From positions 1 to 64,000 of IMG/VR virus record IMGVR_UViG_3300028920_000001: DNA of 64,000 nt, one strand, 5' to 3'. Positions 1,212 to 58,959 of this stretch are shown piece after piece. The position numbers and the translations under genes are program-made. Origin of the DNA: a virus. Under the pieces are notes generated by a model that did not search any database, was not told the origin of the DNA, and saw only the letters and a list, made by a program, of their open reading frames with translations. Each line of letters begins with the position of its first letter. Positions within the stretch are counted from its first letter, which is position 1.

Positions 1212-1234
1212 TTATATAGATTCCATATTTTCCT

Positions 1235-2788: not shown

Positions 2789-2804
2789 ACGGTACGGTAC
2801 TTAT

Positions 2805-4083: not shown

Positions 4084-4123
4084 AACTTTCATTTAGTAAG
4101 GTTATATCAAATTGGAGACAAAC

Positions 4124-4953: not shown

Positions 4954-4978
4954 CTTTTGATTCAGAGGAATTAGAGAA

Positions 4979-5635
4979 ATGTTTAGAAAACCTGCGAAAA
5001 TAGAACGCTTCAATCCAATGAGATCAGCAGTCGTGGGTTTTGCGATGACTGCTTCAGACACGTTCCCTACTTATAAAGGTGAGATTTTCTGGGAATTAAG
5101 ACATAAAGACGGTCAGATTGAGAAGGGACACTATCAGAATTTAGTTACTTTAGATGCTGGAGTTCTTCTGGCTCGTTTGATGAAGAGTCCTACTACTCCT
5201 AATGTGTCTGAGCCTGCTCATGGAGTTTTTGCATTGGCGGTCGGGACCGGGGATGTAGGTTGGGACCCTCTAAATCCTCCCCCAGCTACTAATACTCAGC
5301 GGTCTCTTTATAATGAGCTAGCTCGAAAACAAATTGCTAGTACAGATTTCATTACATCGACTGGAACCATTAGTGGTGTTCCAACCAATAAAGTAGATTT
5401 CACGACCATATTTTCTGAGTCCGAAGCGGTCGGAGCTTTGACAGAAATGGGATTGCTCTGTGGGGATGTAAATTCAAATATGGCAGTACGGAATCCTATT
5501 TTGCCTGCCAATGGAACTTACGATACTACCGTAGATGTAACTGGTAAGGATATTTTAGTTAATTATATAACGTTCCCAGTAATCAATAAGCCGGCCACGA
5601 GCACCTTACAATGGACATGGCGCTTAACTTTTTAA
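4979..5635 (+). CDS. Tail-collar-fibre-like / baseplate-associated protein
   Basis: The pattern FALAVGTGDVGWDP...TNTQRSLYNELARKQI...EAVGALTEMGLLCGD resembles the N-terminal domain of phage tail-collar fibre proteins (MAVGDG...QTxL..E..R..I...IREIGLFD). This is motif recollection only. Confidence 0.4.
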   Translation: MFRKPAKIERFNPMRSAVVGFAMTASDTFPTYKGEIFWELRHKDGQIEKGHYQNLVTLDAGVLLARLMKSPTTPNVSEPAHGVFALAVGTGDVGWDPLNPPPATNTQRSLYNELARKQIASTDFITSTGTISGVPTNKVDFTTIFSESEAVGALTEMGLLCGDVNSNMAVRNPILPANGTYDTTVDVTGKDILVNYITFPVINKPATSTLQWTWRLTF

Positions 5636-5653
5636 TTAAATGTAATTTTATGA

Positions 5654-7537
5654 ATGCATATTGATGAATTAAAGCAATATTTAAATTTAGAAAAGACTAA
5701 ACAAGAATTTGGTGAACCTAAAAATAATAAATCAATAGTATACGTGATTTGTGAGGATTGCCAATTAGACAGACAAATTACAATCCAGTCACTTAAGAAT
5801 AAACTTAGGTTAGATCGGGGGACTCGTTGTAATGCTTGTGGTACAAGATTTTCTTGGACAAATCCTGAAAGAAAAATTAGACAACAGCGAGTTTGGAAAG
5901 ATCCGGAGTATAGAAAGAAACAATCTAAAATTAGGAAGAAACAATGGGAAAATCCTGAGTATCAGCGCAAACAAGCTACTAAGACTGAGGCACGCAAAAA
6001 TGACTCTTCATATCAAGAAAGGATGTCTCGTCAGTCTAAAAAGCAATGGGAAAGGCCTGAATATCGAGAAAATCAGATAGAAATCCAAAAACAATTATGG
6101 AAAACTGAAGAGTATCGAAAAAATCAAAAAGCATTTAAGACTGAGGAATTTAAAAGAGGTCAATCTGTAAAACAGCAACAAGTATGGCAAGATCCTGAAT
6201 ATCGAGAAAATCAATCTGTAAAACAGCAACAAGTATGGAAAAGACCTGGATATAGGAAGCATCAATCAGCAATTCAAAGTCGAATTTGGAATAATCTAGG
6301 ATATCAGGAGCGGCAGTCAAAATTACAAAAACAGGTATGGCAGAATTTTGAATATCGGAAGCATTTTGAAGAAATTTGGGGAAGTGAAGAATATCGAGAA
6401 AAATTATCTAAATCTTTAACAGAAAAATGGAAAAATCCGGAATTTAGAAAAAGAGCTTCTGAAGCTGCAAAAGAAAGGTGGAAAGATCCGGAATTAAGAG
6501 AAAAACTTTCTATTGCAATTAAAAAGATGTGGGAAAGGTCTGAATATCGGGAAAAACAATCACGGGCTCAAAAAAGAAAATGGGAAGATCCTGAGTATCT
6601 AGAAAAAATGGTACAAGCCAGGTCTTCCCAACTCGGAAGAAGATCTTCTATTGAAAAAATTACTGAACAAATTCTTGGTTTAATTGGAGTTAATTATGAA
6701 ATAGAAGTTCCGATCGGTAAATATAGATTCGATTTTTACGTACCCGAACATGATTTATTCATAGAATGTCAGGGAGAATATTGGCATTCTATAGAAGGAA
6801 GACCTGCTCGAGATGCGGCCAAGTTCACTTATTTTGAAAAGGCTCAACCTGATTCTCAGATTTTATATCTTCATGAACGTGAGTTCTTAAATCCTGATTT
6901 AATAAGACGAAAATTGTTACTCTCCATGTTTGGGGACGGATTCAACTTTATTCAAAAAGAATTCAAATTTTCCGATCTGGCTATCCGTAAATTTGAACGG
7001 AAATCTAAAGAACCTCGTTTGTTCTTAAATTCATTTCATTATGCCCAATTCGGCAGGTCAGCTAAAGTAATTTACGGGGCTTATTTGGAGGATGAATTAG
7101 TTGCAGTCTGTAAATTTACTACTCCGGTTAGGAAAGAAGTTGCAACCTCGATGGACTATGCCTATTCAGAAGTCCTGGAATTAGATAGATTCTGTATTCA
7201 TCCGGAATATCAAAAGAAGAATCTTGCTTCTTGGTTTATCTCTCGATGTTCCAAATTAATATTTCAAGAATATCAAATTAAATGTCTGGTGTCATTTGCT
7301 GATTCAACTTATGGACATTTCGGGACGATTTATAAGGCTGCTAATTGGGAAGAGATAGGAAAGATTCGACCTGATTATCATTATGTTAATGATGATGGGT
7401 TCATCCTACATAAGAAAACCTTATATAATCATGCAGTGAAAATGGGTAAGAAAGAGAAAGAATACGCCGAAGAATTTGGATATCGAAAGGTGTTTGGTAA
7501 AGAAAAGATTAAATTTGTGAAAAAGATTCAATTGTAA
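5654..7537 (+). CDS. Large homing-endonuclease-like ORF: Zn ribbon + 14 W-x-[DN]-P-E-Y-R repeats + Vsr/DUF559-like nuclease core + GNAT-like C-terminal domain
   Basis: The N-terminus has a CEDC...CNAC ribbon followed by 14 Trp-initiated units of modal length 17 aa. Then comes YRFDFYVPEHDLFIECQGEYWHS and the C-terminal block LVSFADSTYGHFGTIYKAANW. It is a paralog of 55444..57231 over the last ~300 aa. Confidence 0.6.
   Translation: MHIDELKQYLNLEKTKQEFGEPKNNKSIVYVICEDCQLDRQITIQSLKNKLRLDRGTRCNACGTRFSWTNPERKIRQQRVWKDPEYRKKQSKIRKKQWENPEYQRKQATKTEARKNDSSYQERMSRQSKKQWERPEYRENQIEIQKQLWKTEEYRKNQKAFKTEEFKRGQSVKQQQVWQDPEYRENQSVKQQQVWKRPGYRKHQSAIQSRIWNNLGYQERQSKLQKQVWQNFEYRKHFEEIWGSEEYREKLSKSLTEKWKNPEFRKRASEAAKERWKDPELREKLSIAIKKMWERSEYREKQSRAQKRKWEDPEYLEKMVQARSSQLGRRSSIEKITEQILGLIGVNYEIEVPIGKYRFDFYVPEHDLFIECQGEYWHSIEGRPARDAAKFTYFEKAQPDSQILYLHEREFLNPDLIRRKLLLSMFGDGFNFIQKEFKFSDLAIRKFERKSKEPRLFLNSFHYAQFGRSAKVIYGAYLEDELVAVCKFTTPVRKEVATSMDYAYSEVLELDRFCIHPEYQKKNLASWFISRCSKLIFQEYQIKCLVSFADSTYGHFGTIYKAANWEEIGKIRPDYHYVNDDGFILHKKTLYNHAVKMGKKEKEYAEEFGYRKVFGKEKIKFVKKIQL
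6161..6238 (+). repeat. In-frame tandem duplication inside the W-x-DPEYR array (period 51 nt)
   Basis: caatctgtaaaacagcaacaagtatgg occurs identically at 6161-6187 and 6212-6238. Confidence 0.9.
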
Positions 7538-8351: not shown

Positions 8352-8394
8352 TTTTAGGAAAGCTGTCTTTTTGTTTTTTGTCTGCAATTAACGT

Positions 8395-8454
8395 GGACGG
8401 ATAGGGTAAAAGCTCTCGCCCCCAAGAGCTTACCCAACACAGCCCTATCCGTCC
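8395..8454 (+). terminator. GC-rich nested stem-loop followed by a T-rich tract (candidate intrinsic terminator or structured RNA)
   Basis: ggacggataggg (8395-8406) pairs with ccctatccgtcc (8443-8454). An inner stem aagctct/agagctt lies within. The element is followed by ttgtattatttttatt and sits just after the last gene of a + strand run. Confidence 0.5.
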
Positions 8455-8478
8455 CTTGTATTATTTTTATTGATATCT

Positions 8479-8814
8479 ATGTCGCACTATTTTAATTCAT
8501 TTGAGGAAATGTGGGATGCCATAATTGATTTTATTTCCCATAATCCAGATGCTGTAATTTTATGTAATGATGATCCGTCTTCAAGAAAAATTGGATATTG
8601 TGCATACGCTTACAATAAAATTAATACATATTGGACGATGGATGTTAAACCATATAATGCTTATATCTGTAAACATTTTAAATCGGATCAAGATGTCAAT
8701 CCGACTGTATTTAATATTCGTTTGATATCAGCGGCAGCACTAAATCAAGGGATAAAACTTGAAAATTTTGATCCTGAGAATTGGCACCTGTTGTCTGATA
8801 TTCATTTAACTTGA
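8479..8814 (+). CDS. Hypothetical protein
   Basis: Track ORF 8470..8814 starts at a TTG. The first ATG is at 8479. Confidence 0.55.
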   Translation: MSHYFNSFEEMWDAIIDFISHNPDAVILCNDDPSSRKIGYCAYAYNKINTYWTMDVKPYNAYICKHFKSDQDVNPTVFNIRLISAAALNQGIKLENFDPENWHLLSDIHLT

Positions 8815-9246
8815 CATAATTTCATTAACTTGACATAATTTGCATTTAGGATGATGCCCTACAAATAAGTCGGCTACAATTTCTTTGCATTCTGGACATG
8901 GATATGAAGTGATTACAAAACCTCCACCACTGACTATGACTTCCAATTCATTCTTATTTTTAATTACCACTACTTTAGATACATCCATTTCATAGTTGAT
9001 TGATAAATCAAGAGTTCTAATTATACGATCATGGATTGTTGGAAATTCCCAGCTTTTGGGTACTATAATATCATTGTTAGGTATGGTGGAAGCTAAATTT
9101 TCTTGAAATTCAACTTGGATTTCCCCGTGTTCATACCAAATTTGCCCTTTTTGGTCTAATCTGTAACCAAATTCATCTAGCATCTTGTAAATTCTATTTA
9201 TTTCTTGATGTGATTGGGTCCAGAGATACTGCATTAGTTTATTCAT
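8806..9246 (-). CDS. Hypothetical protein with C-terminal CPEC...CKLC zinc-ribbon-like motif, ending in IMSS
   Basis: Track ORF 8806..9327. The internal Met at 9246 avoids a 68-nt head-to-head overlap with 9260..9583. Confidence 0.55.
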   Translation of the reverse strand: MNKLMQYLWTQSHQEINRIYKMLDEFGYRLDQKGQIWYEHGEIQVEFQENLASTIPNNDIIVPKSWEFPTIHDRIIRTLDLSINYEMDVSKVVVIKNKNELEVIVSGGGFVITSYPCPECKEIVADLFVGHHPKCKLCQVNEIMSS

Positions 9247-17623: not shown

Positions 17624-17630
17624 TAAAACC

Positions 17631-20600: not shown

Positions 20601-21905
20601 TTTAATAGTCATCTGGTGATATTTTGTGTTCCTGATGGAATTACTGGTTCAGGTTCTTTAGCCATTGATAATATGAATATAGTTCGGAATGAATGGCATT
20701 TACCTGAACCAGACACATATATTAATCCAATTACAATTTATGGAATTGGGGACTATTTTCTACAAAATGGACCGAAGGGATTAAGTATTGATGGATTGAA
20801 AGTTACTTGTCCCAATAGTGCTGTAAGGACTGTCGGGGGTCTTGGTGTATCACAACATGAAACTTGGTTTGGAGACGATATTCAAGGATCTGGTAAAGGT
20901 GGATTAGTATCTTTAGGTTGTGGTAGAACAACTGTCAAATCTTACATGAAGATTAAAGATCTTGAGATGATAAATTTGACCAATTCTCTTGGGATTGGTG
21001 ATGTATTTATTAAATGGCAAAATAATCTAATCATTGATGGGATTGTTCTCAATTACTTATACGCTGGATCTGGTTCAAGCGCAACCAATAGAATAAGATT
21101 CAGATCACCGCTGGGAGGAACAGCTAGAATAAATAAAATTATAGTTAATGGTAATAATGTTGCGAGTGGAACAAGCGCAATAATTGGATTTGAACCATGG
21201 GCTCCTTCGAGTTCAGAGGATGATCATTCAATTATTTTTTCTAATTGTGAAATTTCAAATACAATATCATCATCAACTGGAGTGCAATTATTAATATCCC
21301 CGGGTTATACCGGTGCTCCGTCACATGTTGTTGGTTTTAGGATGACCAACTGTTCGATAAGGAATACTGGTGGAGGTGGATGCACTTGTAGTACAATTAC
21401 TCCTGGTGTCATACTTCAATCCATTTCAATAGATAATAACACGATAATAAATTGTGGTTCTGCAGGAATAGATTTTGGAGGACTTGACTATGAGTCCATT
21501 TTGATATCGAATAATATCATTAGAGATTGTACTAGCTATGGCATTATCTTTACAGATTTAAATGTAGGTGTCGTTTCTGGTAGCCCTTCTATTATTGGAA
21601 ATCATTGTTCTTATAATAATGGTTCCGTTACAGCAGTTCAAATTCGTTTTCTTTTAGGGGATGGGGCGTCTGTTATCCCTAAGGGAATAATCCAAGGAAA
21701 TAACTGTGGCGGCCTAAGCACCAGTATTGGAGACATTCAGGTTAATCAAAGAAGTGGATCCTCCAATATTGCATTATCTGGAACAGCTCTTATTGGAGCC
21801 TATACTGCTGGTATTGAGACAGGAATTGACACTCTTCCTAGAACACTTGAATATACTACTAATAATTATATGTTACAAAATCGAGCTAATTTGGTTACTC
21901 CGTAA
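17631..21905 (+). CDS. Tailspike-like protein with parallel beta-helix-type C-terminal region (copy 1)
   Basis: 1424 aa, N-terminus MVRPRKAQ. The C-terminal half has periodic rung-like motifs: FENCILNYS, FRHCELSAD, LQDCKVTLGG, LIDCDVSF, SNCEISNT, TNCSIRNTG, ISNNIIRDCT and IIGNHCSYNNG. Confidence 0.65.
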   Translation: MVRPRKAQIKNSQTRHSLFKYDVPITNHPTSPTGITSTNITAAVMNAAIVTDTPEGAQEDVPARLVSTLSEPYSVIGGEAFTIRADESFALTTVTLSNSDTTASRIANTINTAVGQTIASNYKGKLVIESFAAGSDGLLEIADSIAGTLATLGLTAGTYLGLDAGTRGVVTRSIDGKGGWVPLETPSGKDLLTDCPSIIYYSRRTTTGGSYIPYVPSGLPVHGRLTWDGSQYVLTYHTQINSFPEVITFNSDFNALNSLDNFDLDFNFLELNDKDDVSVNINFTGSHTRDEVIDIINSAVATALSFTTPVCGPATIRSTMSQPFSFYGDDVLCFEIDGGSVQTTTLTLSHVTAQNVVDKINSDITGVTASVISIGNKKLVQIISDNINGYSSSINIYDAASTGSSRNKATERLGISQGVYRGTFVAEPYGTNEIRIRGLVRGSAGYITIGGNAGTLVKLGLIAGTYTGSDELIEEEVDLPQQTSNSVNTDAEIRALIPEVMEFGEVYPAVHSVNEQFDSRVAGSSELHYNYSEFAPHRDIVEKGTRGAGRPVITNGLGLIDRSFLTLILSEFYNLIGQFVSGTKDPDYTLVEALVANTIQTPGSEGNPLPSSSNFHFEIDPDGIYSTPSFFIRFSGSSEPFEVRKDTAYPSENTWKVRIGENGEPGVLYDQYDALKFRDINTIASGDNTGGYHYLPLTGPDAHYVRLLEQEVQNTGDESIIKSINSKWTVTVGDGTKTFGDFNGDTAIQDAIDYFVANVTGVGDLTIQVKTGIYEAAVDMSSLPGSFVLTIQGSSGQATAISFNTIAIKVGVSADTFAFQKLILKDIAVSSNTSAATVIQVNNGCTLECYRCKFDTSVVFRNADAAVFENCILNYSNVAPQPRISFLYKGGASTYEDFIFRHCELSADHENPLIFVQAQNTSTASLIRRIVLQDCKVTLGGTTVNSAILDSNSGIIDLDPNGADAASNQGIRISNFDLIDCDVSFRSVSSFNSHLVIFCVPDGITGSGSLAIDNMNIVRNEWHLPEPDTYINPITIYGIGDYFLQNGPKGLSIDGLKVTCPNSAVRTVGGLGVSQHETWFGDDIQGSGKGGLVSLGCGRTTVKSYMKIKDLEMINLTNSLGIGDVFIKWQNNLIIDGIVLNYLYAGSGSSATNRIRFRSPLGGTARINKIIVNGNNVASGTSAIIGFEPWAPSSSEDDHSIIFSNCEISNTISSSTGVQLLISPGYTGAPSHVVGFRMTNCSIRNTGGGGCTCSTITPGVILQSISIDNNTIINCGSAGIDFGGLDYESILISNNIIRDCTSYGIIFTDLNVGVVSGSPSIIGNHCSYNNGSVTAVQIRFLLGDGASVIPKGIIQGNNCGGLSTSIGDIQVNQRSGSSNIALSGTALIGAYTAGIETGIDTLPRTLEYTTNNYMLQNRANLVTP

Positions 21906-21947
21906 TTTCTGGAAGTTTATTGGGGTAGATCCAGGTAGGATAAGACT

Positions 21948-24900
21948 ATGGTTCGTCCCCGTAAAGAACAAGTAAGAAGCCGTCGGACTCATTATTCTAC
22001 AATGCCGCTTGCTGTAGTTGAGGGTACGGCATCACAGAATATATCTTCAGCTTCTCTTTACACTTATACTGTTTCCGACTCTTGGGATGGGGCTGAAGAA
22101 GATATTGGTGCGACTTTACGAGGGAGTATTGCTGAACCTTTTTCAATCATTTTAGGTGATGCCCTTATTTTAACTATTGATGGAACTGCTCATATCATCA
22201 CTTTTGCAACTGGTGATACTACTATATCTAAAGTTACGAATAAAATTAATACGGTTGTTGGGGCTACCGTAGCTTTCAATGATGAAGGATACTTATTTAT
22301 TAGGAGCACGACGGTTGGATCTAGTAGTACTATTTCATATTCTGGGTCAGCAGCCGCTAAAGTCGGGTTTACATCTACGTCTTTGATCAAAAATGGAATT
22401 GATGGTCCAGCTCGAGGAATACTAGGTAGATCATCTGATCAATTTAACCGAGGTGGCATAGTACCAATTAAGACTAAAGATGGGAAGAATGTAGTTACTG
22501 ATTGTTCAGGAGTGAGAGTCATTCATGAATTGAGTACTGATGGGCAATATCAACCTCTTATTCCTGGTGGGATTCCGATCTATGGGCGACTTCAATCTCC
22601 TGTCGATGGAACTAATTTTACTATAAAATGGTATGCCAAATTACCTGAATATGCTGAAGTTATAACTTCAAATAGTGACTTTGGATTATTAGATGGAACT
22701 AACTATTTGACTATGTACGTAAGTTATATTGATACTGATGGAAATGATCAAGCTCTTCTAGTTTCCTCTTCTTTTTCGGGTGGTCCTGGATATACTCGTG
22801 ATCAAGTAATTGGAATAATCAATAATAATTATGCCACTGCTGCTTCAGTCTCTAGTAAGGCATATATTGAGTCTAATACCGCTAATCAACCCTATGCTGT
22901 TTCTGGTGAGCAGATTTATATTGAACATTCAGGTGGATCTGCCACTATAACATTTGCGCCGACAGATATAACTGCTGATTTAGTACGAGATAAAATTAAT
23001 GCAAGTCTAGCAGGTGTTGCCACCAGCTTCACTTCTGGAAATAAAAAATTACTTCAATTAAGTGATCCAAGTGGTGGATTTAATGGATACTTAATAATTA
23101 AAAATGTCAGCAACAAAGTCAATACTTTAGGTAAATTAGGGTTTAGCCCAGGTACATACTATCCACCAAAACTTGCTGAACCATATGGCGATTCGGAAAT
23201 CAAAATCCGAAGTTTTATTCGTGGATCTGCAGGGTTCCTAACTATCAGTGGTGATCCAACTTCCCTTGGTAGGTTAGGACTCACTTCAGGAACTTTCTAC
23301 GGTGATAATAATGCTGAAACGTCTGTTAATTTCCCTAGTTTAGAAGAAGTAACTAATTCTAATGATATTAATATTTTGATTCCTGAAGTATTGGAATTTG
23401 GTGACGTTCCGGCTGATACTCATTCTAAAACAAGAGAATATGCAATTAAGTCCGCTGGTTCTAATTATACTCCTCAGTATAGATATGATTTAAGTAATCG
23501 TCAATTTATGGTTCCTAACGACGGAACATTTAATAAATCCGAATTATTGAAAGATATTGGTAAGCCAGTTGTTCTTAATGGGTTCGGTTTTATTGATAGA
23601 AAATATCTTCGTGAAGCTATAGATGAATCATACTTATACTTTAAGCAATTCATTCGAGGAGATTTTGATCCGGATGATCCTCAAGTTGATGCATTAGTTG
23701 CTGGTATAATTGAAACCACTGGGACTAATGGTAATCCGCTTTCGCTTGGTACAAATCTTTATATTGATATTGACCCAACAGCTGCTTCTTCTAGTTCAGG
23801 ATTTAGAGTTAGATTTAATCGAGATGCTGTTTCTAAAAGAATTTTTGAAGTCTTTAAAGACAGTACTTTCCCAACTGAACGTGACTATGTTATTGATATA
23901 GGAGACGCTAGTGCTCCCACAGTCATACGAAATCAATATCAAGATCTAAGATTAGAAGATAATTATACTAATATTGCTGGTACCGCTACAGGTGGTATTC
24001 ATTATGTTGCATTAGCTGGTATAAGTGATACTTATCTAAAAGTAATGGAGCAAAGAGCGAATCCGGGTGGTTCGCAAGCTATATCTGATATTAATTTAAT
24101 TAAACAAATTAATGGACGATGGGTGACGACTATTGGTGATGGTACTAATAGTCGTGGTGATTTTAATGGAGCTGATGCAATCAAAGATGCAATAGATTAT
24201 TATATAGCTAATATCAATGATGATAATTTACTTCTTCAAGTTAAGGCGGGTACTTACAATACAACTGCTTCTATTGATTTTAGTCAAACTTCAGGTGCCG
24301 ATGTTAGTTTATGTGTAACAATTGAAGGGATTGAGAATGGCATAAGCATCATTTCTGGTATTACACACTTGTTTGAATTCGGTGGCACTACCAGTAGTTA
24401 TTCTGCCAGAAAATTAGTTTTAAGAAATCTCAAGATTTCTTCTACTACAGGCGGTGATCTTCTTTATTCATATGGTTCTTCTTTAGAAGCTTATAGAGTG
24501 GAATTTGTTGGAGTTAAATTTACAGCTAATGAAGGACGGGTTACGCTATTTGATAATTGTGAAATTACTGCTTACACAGCAGACGGGATTTACGAAAGCT
24601 TCATGAGATCATTAGGGGGCAGTGGAAATAATACAGAAGCTATCATATTTCGAAATTCAAAAATTTATGGTTCAAATGAACATCCAATTATTAAGATTCG
24701 TAATCATGTTTCATCAACTTCTGCTCCTATGTCTGAAGTTGAATTGATTGAATTTGATAACTGTGAAATCAGACTTGGCGGTACTTCCATTACTGCAAGT
24801 TCACTTGATGCTAATTCTGGAATTTTAGAAGTGGATCCAAATTCAGTAAATGGAGCATCTACCTTAGGTACTAGAATTTCAAATGTTAGAATAATTGACT

Positions 24901-26342
24901 GCAATGTGTCTATATATACAGGTGGCTATAGTCCCAGCGGCTCGCTTGGGATGCTGTTTATGTTTCATATTCCATCTGGTCGCACTGGAACAGCAGGTTC
25001 CCATTATCTGCCTGTTGATAGTATGCTGATCAAAGGAGGCAGATGGATAATCCCTGACGCAGATAATGCTATTAATCCACTTACTATTTTTGGAATCGGA
25101 GATACAGTTTCTACGCAAATCTCAAATAAACCAGGATTAGTGATAGATAGTGTTACCATGGGGTGGGAGCCATCTACTTCGACATCACGAGATAGTGTTG
25201 GTGATGTAGTAACTCAACAATATCCTTGGTTTGGAGCCACACCGAATATTTATCAAGCTATATGGGGCGCTTTTGCAATTGGGTCTAATAATAATATCAA
25301 AATCAAAGATTGGACCTTAATTAGTTTGCTTGATTCACAAGAATGTGGAGATGTTTTCATATACTGGAGATATAAATTACTTATCGATGGTATCCATCTT
25401 CAGTATCAAGATGGAGCCGCTACAGCTAATTACCCGGTCCAAAGAATACGACTGAGATCTCCTCAAGCAGGAACTACAGAAATTAATAGAATAGTAGTAG
25501 ACGGTGGTGGTTATGCTAGAGCAACCACTGCAATTGTTCTTTTAGAACCCTATAGTACTGGTGATGTTGCAGCTAATGCTAGTTCTGTAAATTTTAGAAA
25601 TTGTCAGATTTGTAATACTCTTGATGGAACTGGTATTTATTTATTACAGTCAAGTGGAACTAATAATTTATATACTGATTCTGGTGGTGATGGAACCGGA
25701 TCTCAACAAGATTTTGAAAATTTAACTGTTGAGAATTGTGTATTTAAGAGTTTAACAAGTGGATATGGAATTTATTTTTCAACAATCTATGATGATCAAT
25801 ATCTTAGAAATTGTGTGTTTAACGGAAATAGGATGATATCTTGTGAAGATGGTGGAATCTATATAGAAGGTCACCAATTCCCTCAACTTCAAATCATCAA
25901 CAATTATATTAATAGATGTGGACTAACTGCGGTAAGAGCTGGGATTTACATACAAGATAACTTAGATGCCGGGGCTTCAAATTGGTTCATGGTTTCTAAT
26001 AATACAGTATTTGATAATAAGAATGTTGGTGCAGCATCGGATCAAATCCACGTTTATCTTACTCAAGCTACACCTGGAGCGGGAAAATTCCCAAAGGGCA
26101 TTATAATGGGCAATACATGTCAGGGCTTAAGTTTAGTTGGTTATATTAGAATTAATAGAAGAGACGTGGCGGGTGCTTCAGTTGCTTTAGATGCAGCCGG
26201 CGGATCTCCAATAGCTAGTGGTACATATACATTTGGTATATATACTGGTGTTGATAATAACACCGCCAACAGCCCTCTTTATTATCAATATGCAACTATG
26301 GCTCAAATGGATATGAATGTAGCGTATCTAGCAAGTCCATAA
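21948..26342 (+). CDS. Tailspike-like protein with parallel beta-helix-type C-terminal region (copy 2)
   Basis: 1464 aa, N-terminus MVRPRKEQ. It shares conserved blocks with copy 1 (AEPYGxxEIxIR, LIPEVxEFG, GDFNGxxAIxDAIDY). Its own rung motifs are FDNCEITAY, FDNCEIRLGG, IIDCNVSIY, FRNCQICNT, VENCVFKSL and IINNYINRCG. Confidence 0.65.
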   Translation: MVRPRKEQVRSRRTHYSTMPLAVVEGTASQNISSASLYTYTVSDSWDGAEEDIGATLRGSIAEPFSIILGDALILTIDGTAHIITFATGDTTISKVTNKINTVVGATVAFNDEGYLFIRSTTVGSSSTISYSGSAAAKVGFTSTSLIKNGIDGPARGILGRSSDQFNRGGIVPIKTKDGKNVVTDCSGVRVIHELSTDGQYQPLIPGGIPIYGRLQSPVDGTNFTIKWYAKLPEYAEVITSNSDFGLLDGTNYLTMYVSYIDTDGNDQALLVSSSFSGGPGYTRDQVIGIINNNYATAASVSSKAYIESNTANQPYAVSGEQIYIEHSGGSATITFAPTDITADLVRDKINASLAGVATSFTSGNKKLLQLSDPSGGFNGYLIIKNVSNKVNTLGKLGFSPGTYYPPKLAEPYGDSEIKIRSFIRGSAGFLTISGDPTSLGRLGLTSGTFYGDNNAETSVNFPSLEEVTNSNDINILIPEVLEFGDVPADTHSKTREYAIKSAGSNYTPQYRYDLSNRQFMVPNDGTFNKSELLKDIGKPVVLNGFGFIDRKYLREAIDESYLYFKQFIRGDFDPDDPQVDALVAGIIETTGTNGNPLSLGTNLYIDIDPTAASSSSGFRVRFNRDAVSKRIFEVFKDSTFPTERDYVIDIGDASAPTVIRNQYQDLRLEDNYTNIAGTATGGIHYVALAGISDTYLKVMEQRANPGGSQAISDINLIKQINGRWVTTIGDGTNSRGDFNGADAIKDAIDYYIANINDDNLLLQVKAGTYNTTASIDFSQTSGADVSLCVTIEGIENGISIISGITHLFEFGGTTSSYSARKLVLRNLKISSTTGGDLLYSYGSSLEAYRVEFVGVKFTANEGRVTLFDNCEITAYTADGIYESFMRSLGGSGNNTEAIIFRNSKIYGSNEHPIIKIRNHVSSTSAPMSEVELIEFDNCEIRLGGTSITASSLDANSGILEVDPNSVNGASTLGTRISNVRIIDCNVSIYTGGYSPSGSLGMLFMFHIPSGRTGTAGSHYLPVDSMLIKGGRWIIPDADNAINPLTIFGIGDTVSTQISNKPGLVIDSVTMGWEPSTSTSRDSVGDVVTQQYPWFGATPNIYQAIWGAFAIGSNNNIKIKDWTLISLLDSQECGDVFIYWRYKLLIDGIHLQYQDGAATANYPVQRIRLRSPQAGTTEINRIVVDGGGYARATTAIVLLEPYSTGDVAANASSVNFRNCQICNTLDGTGIYLLQSSGTNNLYTDSGGDGTGSQQDFENLTVENCVFKSLTSGYGIYFSTIYDDQYLRNCVFNGNRMISCEDGGIYIEGHQFPQLQIINNYINRCGLTAVRAGIYIQDNLDAGASNWFMVSNNTVFDNKNVGAASDQIHVYLTQATPGAGKFPKGIIMGNTCQGLSLVGYIRINRRDVAGASVALDAAGGSPIASGTYTFGIYTGVDNNTANSPLYYQYATMAQMDMNVAYLASP

Positions 26343-51777: not shown

Positions 51778-52238
51778 TTGACGAAATCACCAAAGAAATT
51801 TCGCTGGCCGGTCTAGCGGTAATTGTGATTGCTTGTGTAGCTCTCACTAAAATCGTTCGCAAGATCGTTGAAACCTCAATTCCGGCTTGGAGGAAAAAGG
51901 CTGACGAAAATCATCCGGATAAGACTTATGCCACCAATATGAGTCGGTGGTGGAACCAAGTTATCCTGTACGTCATTCCAGTCACGATTGGACTTCTACT
52001 GGGATTTATTAAGTCCGAATTTATTTTTGGAAAAATTGATACCCTTAGCGGTAAGATGTTTTATGGTGCGTCTGTCGGCTGGATGTCCGGATTTCTGGTT
52101 AAAATATTCTTCCAGTTAATTAAAGAAAAGACCGGGGTAGACGTCTCTAAGGTTGCGGATATGGATCCCAACCCAATGGCCAGTGTTAGTAAAGATGTAG
52201 ATTCTACGTCTGATGATCAGGACAAGGAAGAGGCCTGA
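51774..52238 (+). CDS. Three-TM membrane protein with acidic C-terminus (holin-like topology)
   Basis: TM candidates are ISLAGLAVIVIACVALTKIV, VILYVIPVTIGLLLGFI and FYGASVGWMSGFLVKIFF. The tail is DVDSTSDDQDKEEA. Confidence 0.35.
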   Translation: MIDEITKEISLAGLAVIVIACVALTKIVRKIVETSIPAWRKKADENHPDKTYATNMSRWWNQVILYVIPVTIGLLLGFIKSEFIFGKIDTLSGKMFYGASVGWMSGFLVKIFFQLIKEKTGVDVSKVADMDPNPMASVSKDVDSTSDDQDKEEA

Positions 52239-53391
52239 TTGACGGCATTTTGCAGGTCGGACAAAGCGGAATCCGGTCCAACTCCTCTTGTACTTTATCA
52301 AGCTCGGATTGGATGGTATCTCTCTGGCTCGAGAGTGCCCTTTCCTCGTCCTTAAGTTGATTCAGGCGGCGTAAGTACCCCTTGCCATTGGAAAGCTTTT
52401 CCGTGCATTCTTCGGAACCCGGAATGGTTATTTCAACAGAAAGTAAATCTACCCTTTTTTGGGCTGATTGAAATTGATTGAGGATCCTTATACCCTTGGA
52501 TATTCTTTGGATATTTTCAAGGTCTTCGATTTTTGAAATTTGAACATCTTCAATCGGCTTTAATCGAATTATTCTCTTAGCTATATTTTGAAGTTTAATC
52601 CAAACCTTGAGCATATTTTGAAGTCTATCTATCTTATATTGTTTTATTGGAGACGGAATTTTAACCAGCTCAATTTGATTGAGTTTTTGAATTTGATTGG
52701 ATAATACCTCAATCTTGGACATAAATTCTTCGATGGCTAAAATTCTCTCACTATATTCTTCAATAGATTCAAATTGACTATCTAGATCAGATTCGAGTTC
52801 GAGCAGATCATCTAATTTATCAAGTTTACCATCTTTGGCTTTTAACTTTTCAACATTTTTCTCATAGATTTTAGCTTCATCTAAGGCCCGTTTTCTATTC
52901 CTAACGTTGATTAAGATTCCGCTTTGTAATACCTTTAATCTACTAACTTCTGAAATAAAATCAGTAACAGCTGGGCCAGAACGGTCTACTAAAAAGAGAG
53001 GGAAAAATTGTCGGGCATGCCAGGGGTGAATTACATCTGATCCAATCTTAATAGCTTGAAATCCGATATCCTGGATAAAGTCAGTCTGTCCAGCACCAAC
53101 TTTGTCGAGTGGTTTTTCTTTGCCTGGGAGCCAATACCGGTTGACCCCTCTTTCTGCTTTTTCCCATTTTAAACCCCAATCAGATGACTGAAGTTCAACT
53201 GTAGTATATTTTTCCCCTTGACGAACTAGGCTTACAACCGGAATATTTAAAAGAGCCCCGGAGATTGCTCGAATAATGGCACTTTTTCCAATATTAGTTT
53301 TACCGGTTATGCAAGTAAATCCAGATATCTCAAATTGGAGATCCGCAATGCTCTGGAAGTTCTGAATATGAACCTTAATTGAATCAGTCAT
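52204..53391 (-). CDS. Rad50/SbcC-like ATPase N-terminal half + coiled coil ending in CxxC
   Basis: Walker A ITGKTNIGKSAI in an SMC/Rad50-like N-terminal context, then ~230 aa of heptad-rich sequence. The C-terminus is LCPTCKMPSIRPLPCPDHQT. No signature motif or Walker B was seen. Confidence 0.5.
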   Translation of the reverse strand: MTDSIKVHIQNFQSIADLQFEISGFTCITGKTNIGKSAIIRAISGALLNIPVVSLVRQGEKYTTVELQSSDWGLKWEKAERGVNRYWLPGKEKPLDKVGAGQTDFIQDIGFQAIKIGSDVIHPWHARQFFPLFLVDRSGPAVTDFISEVSRLKVLQSGILINVRNRKRALDEAKIYEKNVEKLKAKDGKLDKLDDLLELESDLDSQFESIEEYSERILAIEEFMSKIEVLSNQIQKLNQIELVKIPSPIKQYKIDRLQNMLKVWIKLQNIAKRIIRLKPIEDVQISKIEDLENIQRISKGIRILNQFQSAQKRVDLLSVEITIPGSEECTEKLSNGKGYLRRLNQLKDEERALSSQRDTIQSELDKVQEELDRIPLCPTCKMPSIRPLPCPDHQT

Positions 53392-54689
53392 GAACCTAAT
53401 TGCTCTACGTCTATAGCATTTGAATCAACTAAATCTCCATAATCTTGGATTTCTGGTTCTCCTGGATCATCATATTCTGAATCATCGTTGTTATCTGAAT
53501 CATCATGTTCATGACTGGTCACAGCATCTTCGGCTAAAGCTGCTAATTCTTCATCGTCCAGCATTCGATAGCCTTCGATAATCTTGTTACGAGCGAGTTC
53601 AATGACTTCATTTAGGTATTCAGGTTGTTTGCTCATCTCTAATCTGAATTTTTCAGACCCAATAGCCTCAATTACATGTGAATCTTTAGGTGATTTGAAA
53701 GCAAAAACCTCCCGTTTTTGCTTATTCCTAATTTTATTAATAATGTTGTAACGCTCGGCCACGGTTAACATAGTTCGAAGTTCATCGACACCAGTCCCAT
53801 AACGAATGGTGATTAGACCGGAATGCCCTTGCTTGGCATCGATCTTGTTTTTAACCATCTTAACTTCGACATCAGTCGAAATGTAGACATCCTCTTTTTC
53901 GTTGATAAGCGGATTCCAGATTTTGGCCTTAACTGACATTTTCGGCTTAAGTAAAACTCGAGTGGAAGCAAAAAATTTGAGAGTGTTACCTCCGGTAGTA
54001 CTTTTAATGGTTTCTTCTAAATGGCCGAAGGCGCCAATTTTATCACGTTGTTGATTGAGAAATAAAACAACAGTTCCGGTTTCGGCAATGATTCGCTGTA
54101 GTTTTGGAAGAAAAGTAGACATTAACCGAGGGACTTCGGCCACTCCTTGCTTTTGCTTTGCATCTGAGACATCACGTTTCATTTCGCGGCCGGATACTAA
54201 AGCTGCGACTGAATCGATAACTACAATATCTATGCCTTGAAGCGCTGCGTTAACAGTTAGAGCTTCAGTCTCTTCAAAAGTTCGAGGTTGAGCTCGTAAA
54301 GCAGCTCCGGAACCACCTAAATCCGGGCTCCTAAAGTCGGCTCCTAATTTGACTGCATAATGATCTTTGACTGCACATTCGAGATCAATATATAAACCAC
54401 AACCACCAGCCTCTACTGCGTGACCTAATGCGGTTAAGGCTAGAGTCGACTTACCGGAACTTTCACGACCGAAGATTTCATTAATTGAGCCCTTAGCCCA
54501 ACCCGGACATAGGAATTTTCCATTCTTTAGTCGACTACCACCGATTAGCATATTGAGGACGGTGCTGCCGGTATTGATACATTGAATTTCTTGATTAGCT
54601 TCTACGAATACATCCCTTACTTTAGTTCTTTTCTCGACTGAAGCCCGATACTTAGCCAGTTTTGGATGCCATGTTGGTTTAGTCGCCAT
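53388..54689 (-). CDS. recA: RecA-family recombinase with acidic C-terminal tail
   Basis: EIFGRESSGKSTLAL (Walker A; RecA has EIYGPESSGKTTL) and IVVIDSVAALV (Walker B). The Met at 54689 (MATKPTW) is preferred over the track start at 54743. Confidence 0.85.
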   Translation of the reverse strand: MATKPTWHPKLAKYRASVEKRTKVRDVFVEANQEIQCINTGSTVLNMLIGGSRLKNGKFLCPGWAKGSINEIFGRESSGKSTLALTALGHAVEAGGCGLYIDLECAVKDHYAVKLGADFRSPDLGGSGAALRAQPRTFEETEALTVNAALQGIDIVVIDSVAALVSGREMKRDVSDAKQKQGVAEVPRLMSTFLPKLQRIIAETGTVVLFLNQQRDKIGAFGHLEETIKSTTGGNTLKFFASTRVLLKPKMSVKAKIWNPLINEKEDVYISTDVEVKMVKNKIDAKQGHSGLITIRYGTGVDELRTMLTVAERYNIINKIRNKQKREVFAFKSPKDSHVIEAIGSEKFRLEMSKQPEYLNEVIELARNKIIEGYRMLDDEELAALAEDAVTSHEHDDSDNNDDSEYDDPGEPEIQDYGDLVDSNAIDVEQLGS

Positions 54690-54717
54690 AATTATCTCTA
54701 AAGTACAATGGTTCCTA

Positions 54718-55443
54718 TTATTTTTGCATAATACTTTCGACAATCTCGGTATTTTCTAGCCATTGCGCAATATCAGGATGAATTTGATCTTTGTTAGGTA
54801 ACTTAATATTGCCCTTAGGAATTTTGCTAAATTGGAAAAATCGATTATTTTCCCTAAATATCATGGCAGTTTTCTTAGTAATTTTTGCACCTAATAAGGA
54901 TTGAACTTTTCGCCTTCGTTTTAGGAATACTTGTTTTTCATTGTCGGTAAGATCATCAGGTTGAATAAATCCATTCCTGAGTTCCATGAATCTAGCAGTA
55001 AATTTAGCCACACAGTAGGCGTCTGCTTCATCAGATTGCATGGGATCAGGATTCATTTGATCTAATTGCACAAACCGTTGAATATCTTGTTTATCAGCGG
55101 ATCCTTTACCAGTCAAGAATTTCACTGTGGCTGGATCAAACAAGACACAATCTTTGCGTTTTTCGAAAATAGCCTCGAGAGAAAACATCATTAGGCCAAA
55201 ATGGCGCTCAGAATATTCCCCACCACCATAGGCTGGACTTTCCAGTCCAACCAAATCTACTCTGTGCCGTCGAAGTAAATCAGCAACTAATGAACGAAAA
55301 TGAATATAACGAGCTACTGGGACTACCGATTTTAATGTTCCCTCATGTCCAGAAGCAATTAGTTTTCTCTTGCCTTTTAATGTAGAATCATAAATAGCCC
55401 ATCCATAGGATAACAAACTCGGATCTAAACCCAAAGCCTTCAT
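54718..55443 (-). CDS. ruvC: RuvC-like Holliday junction resolvase
   Basis: MKALGLDPSLLSYGWAIYD, VGLESPAYGG and DEADAYCVAKF match RuvC catalytic Asp/Glu contexts. The start could be 55443 or 55455. Confidence 0.75.
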   Translation of the reverse strand: MKALGLDPSLLSYGWAIYDSTLKGKRKLIASGHEGTLKSVVPVARYIHFRSLVADLLRRHRVDLVGLESPAYGGGEYSERHFGLMMFSLEAIFEKRKDCVLFDPATVKFLTGKGSADKQDIQRFVQLDQMNPDPMQSDEADAYCVAKFTARFMELRNGFIQPDDLTDNEKQVFLKRRRKVQSLLGAKITKKTAMIFRENNRFFQFSKIPKGNIKLPNKDQIHPDIAQWLENTEIVESIMQK

Positions 55444-57231
55444 ATGATACTCCATTTAGAACCTGATGATGTATATAAATCATTCATTTATACCGGTGCT
55501 CCGATTAAAATAGGTGAATTTAGCGCTAAGAAATTACCATTTAAGTGTAAATGTGGGTCAATAAAATTAATAAGAATGAATACCATTACTACTGGGAAAA
55601 GTACAACTTGTGGGGAATGTAGTAAAATTAACTTAAATTACGGTACTAAATTCAACGATCTTATTTACATCGGGCCTTCAATTCGAATCCATCCTCAAAG
55701 TGAAAAAAAATTATTATTTAAATGTAAATGTGGTAAATCTAAGTATATTAGGTTCTTTACAGTAGAGAAAGGTAAAGCCAAGAAATGCGGGGACTGCAAT
55801 TTAACTGTTATTAAAAAGGGCGACAAAATAGGTAATTTTTGGTATGCTGGAAATGAAATTACTGAATATCTAGGAACAATTAAAAAATATCCATTTAAAT
55901 GCAAATGTGGGAAGATAGTGTTTCTTAGTCTAAGAAACACTAAGAAAAATCAAACATGTGGTAAGTGTAATGAAATATTATTGAAACACATGGAAAAATA
56001 TCAAACTTTTGTTTATTTAGGTAAAGATATTCATATCGGACCTTGGTCTAAAACAAAATTGCCATTTAAATGTAGATGTGGGGCATTAAAGTATATTTCC
56101 ATCTCATCTATTACATGTGGAGATACTGTATCATGTACTAATTGCTATCAAATAATTAGTACATGGTATAAAAATAATGTACCAACACTTAAAAAATTAA
56201 AATGTCCAATCTCCCCTAGTCAATTTCCGATAGGTGGCCCAATTCCATTAGAAACAATTAAATTTCGTTCTAAGAGTTATACCTTTCTTTGTCCTATTTG
56301 TGATAGTCAATATAATCCAACTTTAAATGAAATTGTAAGAGGAAAGCGATTAACATGTGGCTGCATATGCAATAAAATTTCAGTTCCTAATAGAGAAATA
56401 AAAAACTTTATAGATTCATTAAATTTGAATTCTGAATTGGAATTCAAATTAGACGGCAGATATTTTGACATTAAATCAGGTAACTTGTTGATTGAATTGA
56501 ATGGAATCCGTTGGCATTCCAAAATAAATTCAAGACAACGTGATACTGAAAAATATTCAATAGCTATGGACAATGACTACCAATTATTGTCCATATTTGA
56601 AGATGAATGGAAAAACAAAAAACAGATATTTAAAAACATTATACAACATAATCTTGTACGCAGTGAGTCCATACTCTTACGACCTCAAAAGTGTGAAATT
56701 TTAAAAGTTCAAAATAAAGAAATCAACGACTTTTACGAAAGAACTCATTATATTGGTAAATGTAAAGCTAAAGTTCACTATGCTGTTATTCATGATTCTA
56801 AAATTATAGCTGCCATGTCTTTTGGTAAGCCAACTCGGCCTACCAAAAGATACGATTGGGAAATAATACGAATAGCAACAGATCCAAATTACCATGTTCA
56901 TGGAATCTGGTCTAAACTCTTGAAATTGTTTATTAAAGAATATAAACCAAAGTCCATTGTGTCTTTTTCAGATAATCGTTTGTTTACTGGAAAAGTGTAT
57001 GAAAAATTGGGTTTCACTTATGATGGAGATGTGAAACCTGATTACTACTGGACGTTAGGAAATAAGAGATTCCATAAATCTAATCTCAGGAAAACTAAAG
57101 AAGAAAAATTAACTGGTTTAACTGAAACTCAGTTAAGAGAAGCCCAGGGATATAAGAAAATTTGGGATTTAGGGAAAAAGAGATGGGTCTATCAATTGAT
57201 AGACCCATCTAATTCCAAAGCCCGCACTTAG
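55444..57231 (+). CDS. Large homing-endonuclease-like ORF: 4-5 tandem Zn-ribbon units + Vsr/DUF559-like nuclease core + GNAT-like C-terminal domain
   Basis: Repeated ~58-aa units (KKLPFKCKCGxxKxI...CGxC). Then RYFDIKSGNLLIELNGIRWHS and the C-terminal block IVSFSDNRLFTGKVYEKLGF...PDYYW. It is the only + strand gene in a - strand block. Confidence 0.6.
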   Translation: MILHLEPDDVYKSFIYTGAPIKIGEFSAKKLPFKCKCGSIKLIRMNTITTGKSTTCGECSKINLNYGTKFNDLIYIGPSIRIHPQSEKKLLFKCKCGKSKYIRFFTVEKGKAKKCGDCNLTVIKKGDKIGNFWYAGNEITEYLGTIKKYPFKCKCGKIVFLSLRNTKKNQTCGKCNEILLKHMEKYQTFVYLGKDIHIGPWSKTKLPFKCRCGALKYISISSITCGDTVSCTNCYQIISTWYKNNVPTLKKLKCPISPSQFPIGGPIPLETIKFRSKSYTFLCPICDSQYNPTLNEIVRGKRLTCGCICNKISVPNREIKNFIDSLNLNSELEFKLDGRYFDIKSGNLLIELNGIRWHSKINSRQRDTEKYSIAMDNDYQLLSIFEDEWKNKKQIFKNIIQHNLVRSESILLRPQKCEILKVQNKEINDFYERTHYIGKCKAKVHYAVIHDSKIIAAMSFGKPTRPTKRYDWEIIRIATDPNYHVHGIWSKLLKLFIKEYKPKSIVSFSDNRLFTGKVYEKLGFTYDGDVKPDYYWTLGNKRFHKSNLRKTKEEKLTGLTETQLREAQGYKKIWDLGKKRWVYQLIDPSNSKART

Positions 57232-58115
57232 AGTAAATCGTCGTAGCCCTGCTGAAGTTTCGGTGCTTCAGCAGAAGCTTCGCCTGAACCTAACTGATTA
57301 GAACTGCCGCCACCACTGATGCGTTGTTGGAGTTGCTCTGCTGTGAGCTCGAACCCAAGCTCTTTTTCGACATGCTTCCAAGCTCGCAATCCTTCTTCCA
57401 AAATCCACTGGCGGATTTCCGGCTTGATGCCTTCTTTGCGTGCCCAAGCCGCAGTCATTCCATTTTCGAAATTCTGCTTTTGATATTTTGAATCACCATC
57501 CAAGGTGACCTTGATATCAATTACCTTGAAATCGTTTTTGCGTGCACTAGCATAAGTGCTCTCGAATTTCTTATATTTCTTGGCACTCATCCGATAGAGT
57601 TCGATGGTAGTATATTTCTTTTGATTCAGCAGTTCCAGATCTGCTTCACCATCCTCATCGATCGGGTATTTCAGAATGACACAGCCGACATGTTGCTGTG
57701 CATCATCTAATTTCTTAGTGCTGCAGCAAACGGCTCGATGAGTAATGGTCTTCCCATCTCGCTTGCTCAGGCAGCGAATGGTTCCAAATCCATCACCGAA
57801 GTGGGTGTAAGCTGCTGCGAATTTAGGGCTTTCGATGTTAAGCCGATCAACCTCAGTTAGATCCTTAACGTCTTTACCCATTCTTTCGGCTAACTTGACA
57901 TCAACCTTCTTAACAATATCTGCGATTTCTTCATCGGTAAGAGGGCTGCCTTTTTCCTTAGCCTTGTGCTTTAGGACTGCATCAACATGTTTCTTGAAAG
58001 AGATGACGGAAATTCGGCTAAGTTCGCCCGGCCGGCTTTGGGTGAATCGCTCATAACCACTAACCTGAACGACCTTGCCATCATCAAACCCGAACTCCAT
58101 TACGTCGCTAGACAT
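57228..58115 (-). CDS. gp32-like single-stranded DNA-binding protein
   Basis: Strong AAGGAGG 5 nt upstream. The order of blocks (GELSRISVISFKK; IRCLSKRDGKTITHRAVCCS; GCVILKYPIDEDGE; IELYRMSAKKYKKF; acidic tail ending YDDLL) parallels T4 gp32 as I recall it. Confidence 0.5.
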   Translation of the reverse strand: MSSDVMEFGFDDGKVVQVSGYERFTQSRPGELSRISVISFKKHVDAVLKHKAKEKGSPLTDEEIADIVKKVDVKLAERMGKDVKDLTEVDRLNIESPKFAAAYTHFGDGFGTIRCLSKRDGKTITHRAVCCSTKKLDDAQQHVGCVILKYPIDEDGEADLELLNQKKYTTIELYRMSAKKYKKFESTYASARKNDFKVIDIKVTLDGDSKYQKQNFENGMTAAWARKEGIKPEIRQWILEEGLRAWKHVEKELGFELTAEQLQQRISGGGSSNQLGSGEASAEAPKLQQGYDDLL

Positions 58116-58194
58116 TGTTGCCTCCTTAGACCTTTAAACCCGTAAACGAGTGAACGGTTGTCTTTGAACAATACAACTATACATTTAAAAATTA

Positions 58195-58959
58195 TCACTT
58201 TAACAGGTCTTCGTAAGATATGCCTTCAGTAGATTCGGAGGTCTTTGTTTCAGGATTGGGACTATCATTAGGAGATTGGGACTCTTGATTAAAAAAATCT
58301 GCTATAGCATTAGCATGGGAGCCACTTAATGGCTCTGGTAAATCATCCGGTCTTTTATTTGGATCTAATATTTCTTTAGGGTCAATCCTATTTCTATTAA
58401 CTGCTGGAGGCATTCCGTGACTAAGTCGGCCCTGTTCGTCAGCTGAGCCTGAAGAATATCCGCCATCACCTCCAAATTGGCTACTTCGGTCATCTTTTAC
58501 TAATTGACGTTGAAAACGAATATCTCCATTAGTTTTCTGAAGGTCATCATACTTGAGTTTGACTATTTTAGCGGTTTCTTGAATATCTAAGAGTTCAACC
58601 TTGAGTTTAACGATAGTTTCAGCCTCATTTTTTAACATAGAGGCTGCGACCGCTTTTTTAATACCCTCTGATGGTTGCTGACGAACTATAGTATCATCAG
58701 CTAATTTTTCTTGCATTTTGAGATCTAAGTCAAGTTCGGATTGTTTGACTTCAATTCTTAAATCTCGTTCTCGTTTCTTAATTTTTTGAAGATAATACTG
58801 AACTCGATTGAGATAACTTCGACACTGAGCTATAGATTTCTGGAGATAAATAAATCCGTATTGAGGTTGAGTCGGATCTTCTACTAATTCAATTTCATAT
58901 CCAGCAATTTCATTTAATATCTGGTCTAATTGTTCTTTAGAAAACACCTCTTCGGTCAT
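58195..58959 (-). CDS. Coiled-coil protein with acidic tail ending YEDLLK
   Basis: 254-aa ORF with heptad-rich N-terminal two thirds and a Gly/Ser/Pro-rich tail. Confidence 0.55.
   Translation of the reverse strand: MTEEVFSKEQLDQILNEIAGYEIELVEDPTQPQYGFIYLQKSIAQCRSYLNRVQYYLQKIKKRERDLRIEVKQSELDLDLKMQEKLADDTIVRQQPSEGIKKAVAASMLKNEAETIVKLKVELLDIQETAKIVKLKYDDLQKTNGDIRFQRQLVKDDRSSQFGGDGGYSSGSADEQGRLSHGMPPAVNRNRIDPKEILDPNKRPDDLPEPLSGSHANAIADFFNQESQSPNDSPNPETKTSESTEGISYEDLLK

Follow-up and report, generated by a model that had tools for sequence, protein, structure and literature searches.

A probable mobile homing endonuclease of the Hef-like type, with a zinc-finger array and a Mom-type domain, beside ruvC in an uncultured jumbo phage

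Analysis of a 64,000-nucleotide stretch of viral DNA (positions 1 to 64,000 of IMG/VR record IMGVR_UViG_3300028920_000001; hereafter the window), part of a 428,825-bp contig of a phage of ~430 kb, identified the open reading frame (ORF) at 55444..57231 as a likely member of the Hef-like branch of the Vsr-like EDxHD free-standing homing endonucleases, lying as an antisense insert between the gene at 57228..58115 and ruvC. Both the domain architecture and the family have been described before; the present ORF adds a member from an uncultured jumbo phage. Hef-type enzymes were assigned to the Vsr-like "EDxHD" homing endonuclease family by Taylor et al. 2011 (PMC3239194), a passage of another paper cites phage U5 hef as an endonuclease cleaving at nrdB (PMC2988022), and the LIMEstone paper (PMC3296691) lists genes of this kind as Hef-like free-standing endonucleases. 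The gene and the parts of its product are as follows.

55444..57231, plus strand: probable Hef-like free-standing homing endonuclease gene of 595 amino acids (aa) plus stop, with PHROG matches, antisense to the minus-strand recombination gene block.
55480..56181, plus strand: four ~59-aa treble-clef-type zinc-finger units, a putative DNA-recognition module (aa 13-246), from repeat statistics and invariant Cys.
56182..56379, plus strand: long linker helix and a fifth, distinct zinc site (aa 247-312; C283, C286, C305, C307), adjoining the nuclease.
56380..56655, plus strand: Vsr-like (EDxHD) PD-(D/E)xK nuclease domain (aa 313-404), with catalytic candidates E318, D342, N353, H358 and D367.
56656..57198, plus strand: Mom-family GNAT domain with a conserved active site (aa 405-585), from Foldseek, Pfam Mom and residue mapping.

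The family assignment is carried by nearly full-length profile matches. PHROG 559 matched the ORF at E=1e-81, with residues 83-585 spanning positions 83-601 of the 607-position profile, and PHROG 3339, annotated "homing endonuclease", matched at E=8.5e-59; a Mom-like PHROG matched too. The best matches in known phages were "Hef-like homing endonucleases" of Campylobacter myoviruses (27-30% identity over 93% coverage), which occur at 8-11 places per genome. The phage itself is without a close relative in culture, and its RecA reaches no more than ~36% identity with any phage record. The nuclease and GNAT chassis alone was present in 396 phage records under labels that include Hef-like homing endonuclease, nuclease/acetyltransferase and F-LimX, and an exhaustive profile search with a threshold of E<=1e-30 returned 11,897 cluster representatives, many of which match in the chassis only and have other N termini. 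A first-pass annotation of this DNA, made from the sequence, had proposed one conserved catalytic chassis combined with differing N-terminal arrays; that combination is real and general across the family, and both the nuclease and the GNAT-type domain exist, while the annotation had missed that they belong to a known Hef-like/EDxHD family and that the gene is mobile. The AlphaFold2 model of the protein had a mean predicted local distance difference test score (pLDDT) of 89. In an alignment of 30 homologs with identities of 32-51%, every zinc ligand was invariant, which indicates selection. The insert has a GC content of 30.6% and is thus AT-rich beside the genes on either side, where the figure is 37.5-45.9%.

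For the nuclease domain, the closest solved match to the family profile was the homing endonuclease I-Bth0305I (PDB 3R3P; E=2.7e-7), and Foldseek superposed the model on the same structure with a template modeling (TM) score of 0.73, a root mean square deviation of 2.8 Å and 26% identity. The register with I-Bth0305I pairs D342 with D196, N353 with N208, H358 with H213 and D367 with D222, and the D-x-H-D spacing is 11/5/9 here against 12/5/9 in I-Bth0305I. Among the 30 family members, D342 and H358 were present in all, D367 was D in 25, E in four and Q in one, N353 was N, Q or H, and E318 was kept in 24; E318 aligned with E170 of I-Bth0305I, this first E of the motif being placed by alignment only. 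The Pfam family PF18741 matched 25 of the 30. Judged by sequence and model together, the domain has both the fold and the composite motif of the EDxHD enzymes.

The C-terminal domain, which the earlier annotation had called GNAT-like, does have a GNAT fold and is specifically of the Mom type. Phage Mu Mom (8BV8) was the top PDB match of the whole model in Foldseek (E=3.4e-7). Pfam Mom (PF25680) scored 24.3 bits against the window protein, under its cut-off of 27.1, with residues 419-585 spanning positions 4-185 of the 202-position profile and the alignment running through the region of Mom's insertion, where helices were modeled; the same profile matched 20 of the 30 family members at E<=0.01. 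Mu Mom moves glycine from Gly-tRNA-Gly onto adenine N6 in double-stranded DNA, and its active-site residues are H58, Y59, R111, S124, D149, R151 and Y159 (PMC13219725). When the Mu Mom sequence (from NC_000929) was aligned to the 30-member family with MAFFT, six of these seven residues could be mapped and all six were conserved: H58 corresponds to H435 (30/30), Y59 to Y436 (28/30), R111 to R476 (29/30), D149 to D510 (30/30), R151 to R512 (30/30) and Y159 to Y519 (30/30). The S124-bearing loop is shorter by 4 aa, and in the MAFFT alignment S124 falls opposite a gap, so its placement is ambiguous; the equivalent loop holds a near-invariant H486-G487 with W489 directly after. Mom W48, involved in dimerization, and W181 were not conserved, the positions being occupied by K425 and K541 in columns that vary within the family. 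Since the active-site residues are kept, the Mom domain of this Hef-like protein is probably catalytic. No tRNA genes, sought as a possible link to Mom chemistry, were found in the window.

A probably active Mom domain fused to a nuclease raises a different explanation, namely that the protein is a single-polypeptide modification-restriction weapon in which Mom marks adenines of the phage's own genome and the nuclease attacks host or competitor DNA that lacks the mark, the gene being kept for that benefit and not through homing. Iyer et al. 2021 (PMC7824862) described Mom domains of jumbo phages fused to restriction endonuclease (REase)-fold nucleases, read them as restriction-modification units and predict this role for them. 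Conservation of the Mom active-site residues in the family favors such a role, as do purifying selection throughout the family and the several paralogs per genome: two in the window, the only Hef-like copies it holds (55444..57231 and 5654..7537), and extra copies next to a second site in the related loci L008, L014 and L018, described below. We nevertheless consider this explanation unlikely, in view of the behavior of the locus in related phages.

Metagenomic contigs were scanned with a profile of the 57228..58115 family (112 homologs), which yielded 38 loci. Flanking synteny is maintained in relatives of 180-445 kb, in which the genes labeled 58966, 58195 and 57228 are followed by ruvC, recA and an SbcC-like gene. 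The first-pass annotation had proposed a comparison with relatives lacking the insert, and about 14 distinct loci turned out to be empty, the 57228 homolog and ruvC lying 57-156 bp apart. In loci L002 and L003 the empty slot comprises 50 and 92 bp, and the spacer has a GC-rich hairpin at the position of a palindrome, a likely terminator, in the window. A Hef-like gene occupies the slot on the strand opposite to its neighbors in the window, L004, L010, L016, L023, L024, L027 and the contig of homolog P0005, and on the same strand as its neighbors in L012 and L052; in both orientations the end of the gene is flush with the ruvC start codon. At L049 the slot (734-1447, plus strand) holds a 237-aa Hef remnant that begins MIELNGIKWHS inside the nuclease domain, without the array and without the first catalytic Asp, and it looks like a decaying copy. 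The slot contains a GIY-YIG gene in five distinct loci (NUMOD3 accompanies it in two; L021 duplicates L020) and an Endonuclease VII gene in L054, and four loci have slot ORFs of unknown function. We also noted that in L001, from a 393-kb relative, the slot (6990-8906, plus strand) contains two ORFs, of 128 and 450 aa; neither matches a Pfam or PHROG family or has a homolog in the window.

Because empty, occupied, remnant and other-nuclease loci all occur, the slot is a hot spot for at least three nuclease families, displaying all stages of the life cycle of a homing gene, and presence and absence at a conserved site mark the gene as a mobile insert. The same pattern counts against a modification-restriction role: the gene is missing at the slot in most relatives, it is present or absent at one precise position, in both orientations and with a decayed remnant, and it shares that position with mobile GIY-YIG and Endonuclease VII genes, which is the signature of a homing element and not of a core defense gene. 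A long, variable array that tracks the locus would likewise be needless for genome-wide modification.

The array consists of four repeat units (aa 13-71, 72-130, 131-189 and 188-246), each with the pattern CxC...CxxC and modeled as a beta-hairpin and a short helix with a pLDDT of ~90. Pairwise identities between units are 33-47%, with alignment scores 10-23 standard deviations (SD) over those of shuffled sequences, and all four Cys ligands of each unit are invariant in 30/30 homologs; the number of units ranges from 3 to 6 across the family. PF14311 (DUF4379, treble clef zinc finger) matched 16 of the 30 family members, the best at E=7.6e-21, and did not match the window protein itself at E<=1. 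At the DNA level the units are just 42-53% identical, so the duplications that gave rise to them must be old, and a recent DNA-level duplication is ruled out. The array had been described as four complete units and one degenerate fifth. Four real repeats of ~59 aa were recovered; the fifth is a distinct element and not a degenerate repeat, because its knuckles come in reversed order (CxxC...CxC) and because C283, C286, C305, C307 and G306 are invariant in 30 homologs. The linker helix before it spans residues 232-251 in the model.

The proposal that the arrays set target specificity gained correlative support from a domain-wise comparison of homologs with the window protein, the sequence of the array being what follows the site of insertion. 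One group of homologs had array identities to the window protein of 37-49% and Mom domain identities of 52-59%; in a second, the arrays were 22-31% identical to its array and the Mom domains up to 64%. P0003, P0004, P0005, P0006 and P0007 (array 43-49%) all occupy the ruvC slot; P0012, P0021 and P0028 (array 25-29%) all follow a conserved gene of 223-234 aa, here called site 2, with flanks 72-77% identical from locus to locus; P0010, P0018 and P0034 are located elsewhere. For homologs of known context, the ruvC site was found in 5/6 with an array at least 43% identical to that of the window protein and in 0/6 with an array at most 37% identical. Arrays from the ruvC site were 46% identical to one another and those from site 2 41%, against 27% for comparisons across the two sites; the corresponding Mom domain identities of 54%, 65% and 55% carried no site signal. 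Unit by unit, each repeat of the window protein best matched the repeat at the same position in same-site orthologs, while there was no such diagonal with site-2 proteins. The Mom domain of the window protein is closer to those of site-2 proteins (60-64%) than to those of its own-site orthologs (52-55%), which argues for recombination between copies. The association of array and site is correlative, comes from a small sample and is confounded by shared ancestry, and P0008, with an array 43% identical to that of the window protein, follows dnaB and is a counter-example to it; the idea that arrays set specificity thus stands in part.

Around site 2 we also observed a second homing hot spot in the relatives, with Hef-like genes of differing N termini on both sides of the conserved 223-234-aa gene: 2631-4178 (minus strand) in L008, 1208-2971 (minus) in L014, and both 1850-3061 (minus) and 4001-5953 (plus) in L018.

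Beyond the dnaB-associated homolog, several further findings weigh against an active homing endonuclease. Hef orthologs at the same site are 45-48% identical, compared with 56-65% for RecA and 56-58% for RuvC, and divergence so near the level of the neighbors fits long vertical residence as well as it fits repeated homing. No immunity substitutions separated occupied from empty ruvC 5' ends; differences in the GLDPS codons there, taken up as candidates, track the GC content of the genomes and not occupancy. A plain homing endonuclease has no need of an intact Mom active site. Finally, neither a promoter-like site nor a Shine-Dalgarno sequence was found upstream from the ATG at 55444, which leaves the expression of the antisense gene unexplained.

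That same-site orthologs diverge roughly in step with their neighbors might mean that the gene was formerly mobile and is now fixed and immobile, kept for some other benefit to the phage, such as marker exclusion against co-infecting relatives or stimulation of recombination nearby. Its tight packing against ruvC with a shared boundary and the retention of all functional residues would fit. Both orientations of the gene (L012 and L052 versus the window) and the remnant in L049 indicate repeated gain and decay instead, and the greater similarity of its Mom domain to site-2 proteins than to same-site orthologs indicates recombination between copies; we therefore regard fixation as quite improbable. 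Least credible of all is that the gene is an inactive relic, or encodes a pure DNA-binding protein without a catalytic role. The lack of expression signals upstream and the Pfam Mom score just under the curated cut-off could be cited for it, whereas the ORF is intact, its zinc ligands, nuclease residues and mapped Mom residues are conserved across 30 homologs, and the true relic in L049 looks different, being truncated and lacking both the array and the D342 region.

If the ORF encodes an active homing endonuclease, as we consider likely, its action might proceed as follows. In genomes without the gene, the four treble-clef fingers, probably with the fifth zinc site, would bind a long DNA target close to the point of insertion, the one line of support for such binding being that array sequence tracks the insertion site. 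The Vsr-like domain would then cut the DNA through D342, H358 and D367 with a metal ion; here the fold and the residues come from the present analysis, and activity is suggested by analogy with I-Bth0305I and phage U5 Hef. During co-infection, repair of the break by recombination against a gene-carrying genome would copy the gene into the slot, as the presence/absence pattern suggests. More speculatively, and as our favored guess, the Mom-type GNAT domain could modify an adenine in or near the enzyme's own site or otherwise handle the flipped target base, providing self-protection or extra recognition.

A bolder version of this last step holds that Hef-type enzymes are self-immunizing: the array would position both the nuclease and Mom, and Mom, using an aminoacyl-tRNA as Mu Mom does, would modify an adenine within the enzyme's own recognition site, so that carriers are protected and naive genomes are cut. 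We regard this as doubtful and offer it tentatively; if true, it would define a single-chain, array-addressed unit of restriction-modification and homing, with a zinc-finger-to-DNA code readable over thousands of natural variants. Thousands of homing endonucleases with an apparently active Mom domain in any case pose a testable question about Mom chemistry in homing, because Mu Mom uses Gly-tRNA on adenine. In itself the present result is one of annotation: an uncultured jumbo phage carries a selfish nuclease gene of a known class. The family is very large, numbering ~12,000 cluster representatives at the threshold E<=1e-30, and an array that follows the insertion site while the chassis recombines freely makes it a clean natural experiment and a possible source of modular DNA-recognition units.

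The junctions of the insert involve three minus-strand features.

54718..55443, minus strand: ruvC, Holliday-junction resolvase (Pfam RuvC, PHROG 159), whose start abuts the insert.
57181..57210, minus strand: perfect 30-nucleotide (nt) palindrome with a T-run, likely the intrinsic terminator of 57228..58115, from a terminator scan.
57228..58115, minus strand: conserved clade-specific gene, previously called gp32-like, with 112 homologs and no family or fold match.

As first described, the ATG of the ORF at 55444 adjoins the ruvC start at 55443 within a CATATG (55441-55446). The ruvC start at 55443 is favored over a longer alternative at 55455 because relatives begin M-x-x-LGLDPSL and because a GGAG ribosome-binding site lies 6 nt upstream (55450-55453), inside codons 3-4 of the Hef-like ORF. 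At the other end, the stop of the minus-strand gene (TTA, 57228-30) and that of the ORF (TAG, 57229-31) share 2 nt, so that the reported overlap of stops is real; the gp32-like label given to the neighbor is not supported. That gene had no Pfam, PHROG, NCBIfam or PDB sequence match, and the best PDB fold match to its model (pLDDT 83.5, predicted TM score 0.77) had E=0.26, with no single-stranded DNA-binding protein among the matches. Its family of 112 homologs has invariant H105, C115, C130 and C131 and an acidic C-terminal tail, and it adjoins ruvC and recA in the recombination module. The palindrome, AGATGGGTCTATCAATTGATAGACCCATCT, lies 18 nt past the 57228 stop and encodes residues 580-589 of the plus-strand ORF, and we noted that it gives an identical peptide from either strand. 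As family conservation stops near W581, the Hef-like ORF runs on through native intergenic DNA for its last ~12 aa.

A sigma-70-like promoter for the ORF was considered and rejected, promoter-like matches in the region numbering 8 compared with 13 in shuffled sequences. An Rfam search of 54000-58600 gave no match at E<=0.1, and an intron or structured RNA around the insert was likewise rejected; ruvC and the upstream gene are both intact, which marks the Hef-like gene as free-standing. Farther along the same block, the SbcC-like ORF (52204-53391, minus strand; 395 aa) matches the AAA_23/SbcC P-loop just in its N-terminal ~50 residues; its homologs in relatives are similar in length, and it may be a split or unusual protein of the Rad50/SbcC type.

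The second Hef-like gene of the window lies near its start.

5654..7537, plus strand: second Hef-like gene (627 aa), with the nuclease and Mom chassis and a different N terminus; BLASTP E=3e-10 versus 55444..57231.

That the two proteins share their last two domains had been suggested from quoted motifs, which are present, and alignment bears this out: in the C-terminal half, BLASTP found 25% identity over 236 aa. The product of 5654..7537 scores 76 bits with Pfam Mom and has T552 in place of the essential R151 of Mu Mom. Its N terminus comprises a CapR-like zinc ribbon (CxxC...CxxC), then at least 10 17-aa repeats of the form W-x-[DN]-P-E-Y-R-x-K-Q-S, counted by regular expression. The C terminus of a 515-aa protein in L008 is 46% identical to the product of 5654..7537; no homology was found between 4979..5635, the ORF upstream of 5654..7537, and the 223-aa gene of site 2. 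Directly after 5654..7537, at 7537-8351 (plus strand), we observed three consecutive small Cys-containing ORFs of 75, 71 and 124 aa, all ending ...MES via ATGGAATC and then a stop; they resemble tandem paralogs in which the 3' end has been conserved, and the one of the trio that was scanned had no family match. Elsewhere in the window, three consecutive very large ORFs of 1549, 1424 and 1464 aa occupy 12974-26342 (plus strand).

Among known systems, the closest are Hef of phage U5 and the Hef-like enzymes of T4-related, ViI-like, Campylobacter and jumbo phages (F-LimIII/VII/VIII/X of LIMEstone1, Hef60 of NCTC12673), with which the window protein shares a near-full-length profile and the nuclease and Mom-like chassis. 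The free-standing intergenic location, the several copies per genome and the variable N termini are also common to these enzymes (PHROG 559/3339). The window protein is just 27-39% identical to members from cultured phages, and its subfamily differs from other Hef-like enzymes in the regular 4+1 array of zinc sites and in the slot next to ruvC. I-Bth0305I (3R3P), the EDxHD prototype, has the same nuclease fold and aligned catalytic positions, and its modular N-terminal DNA-binding region, ahead of the nuclease, would correspond to the putative recognition array here; it is itself intron-encoded, uses NUMOD/helix-turn-helix modules, and has neither zinc fingers nor a C-terminal GNAT/Mom domain. 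The Gly-tRNA-dependent Mu Mom (8BV8) is the best solved match to the C-terminal domain, with equivalents of H58, Y59, R111, D149, R151 and Y159 kept; the two are ~15% identical, the S124 loop is 4 aa shorter here, and W48 and W181 are not conserved. Mu Mom stands alone with its Com regulator, whereas the Mom domain of the window protein shares its polypeptide with a nuclease and a zinc-finger array. Giant-virus and phage proteins that join DUF4379 fingers to REase/DUF2726 nucleases resemble the window protein in carrying repeated fingers of the treble-clef type ahead of a Vsr/DUF2726-type nuclease, and those of giant viruses match over the fingers and nuclease only, with low TM scores. The Mom-REase fusions of jumbo phages (Iyer, Anantharaman, Krishnan, Burroughs, Aravind 2021; five in PA5oct) have the same domain fusion, again in large phages, and the window protein strongly matches a PA5oct "putative homing endonuclease" in structure (E=2.7e-28). 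In contrast to the restriction-modification reading given to those fusions, the comparisons of loci made here show, for this subfamily, the behavior of a homing element.

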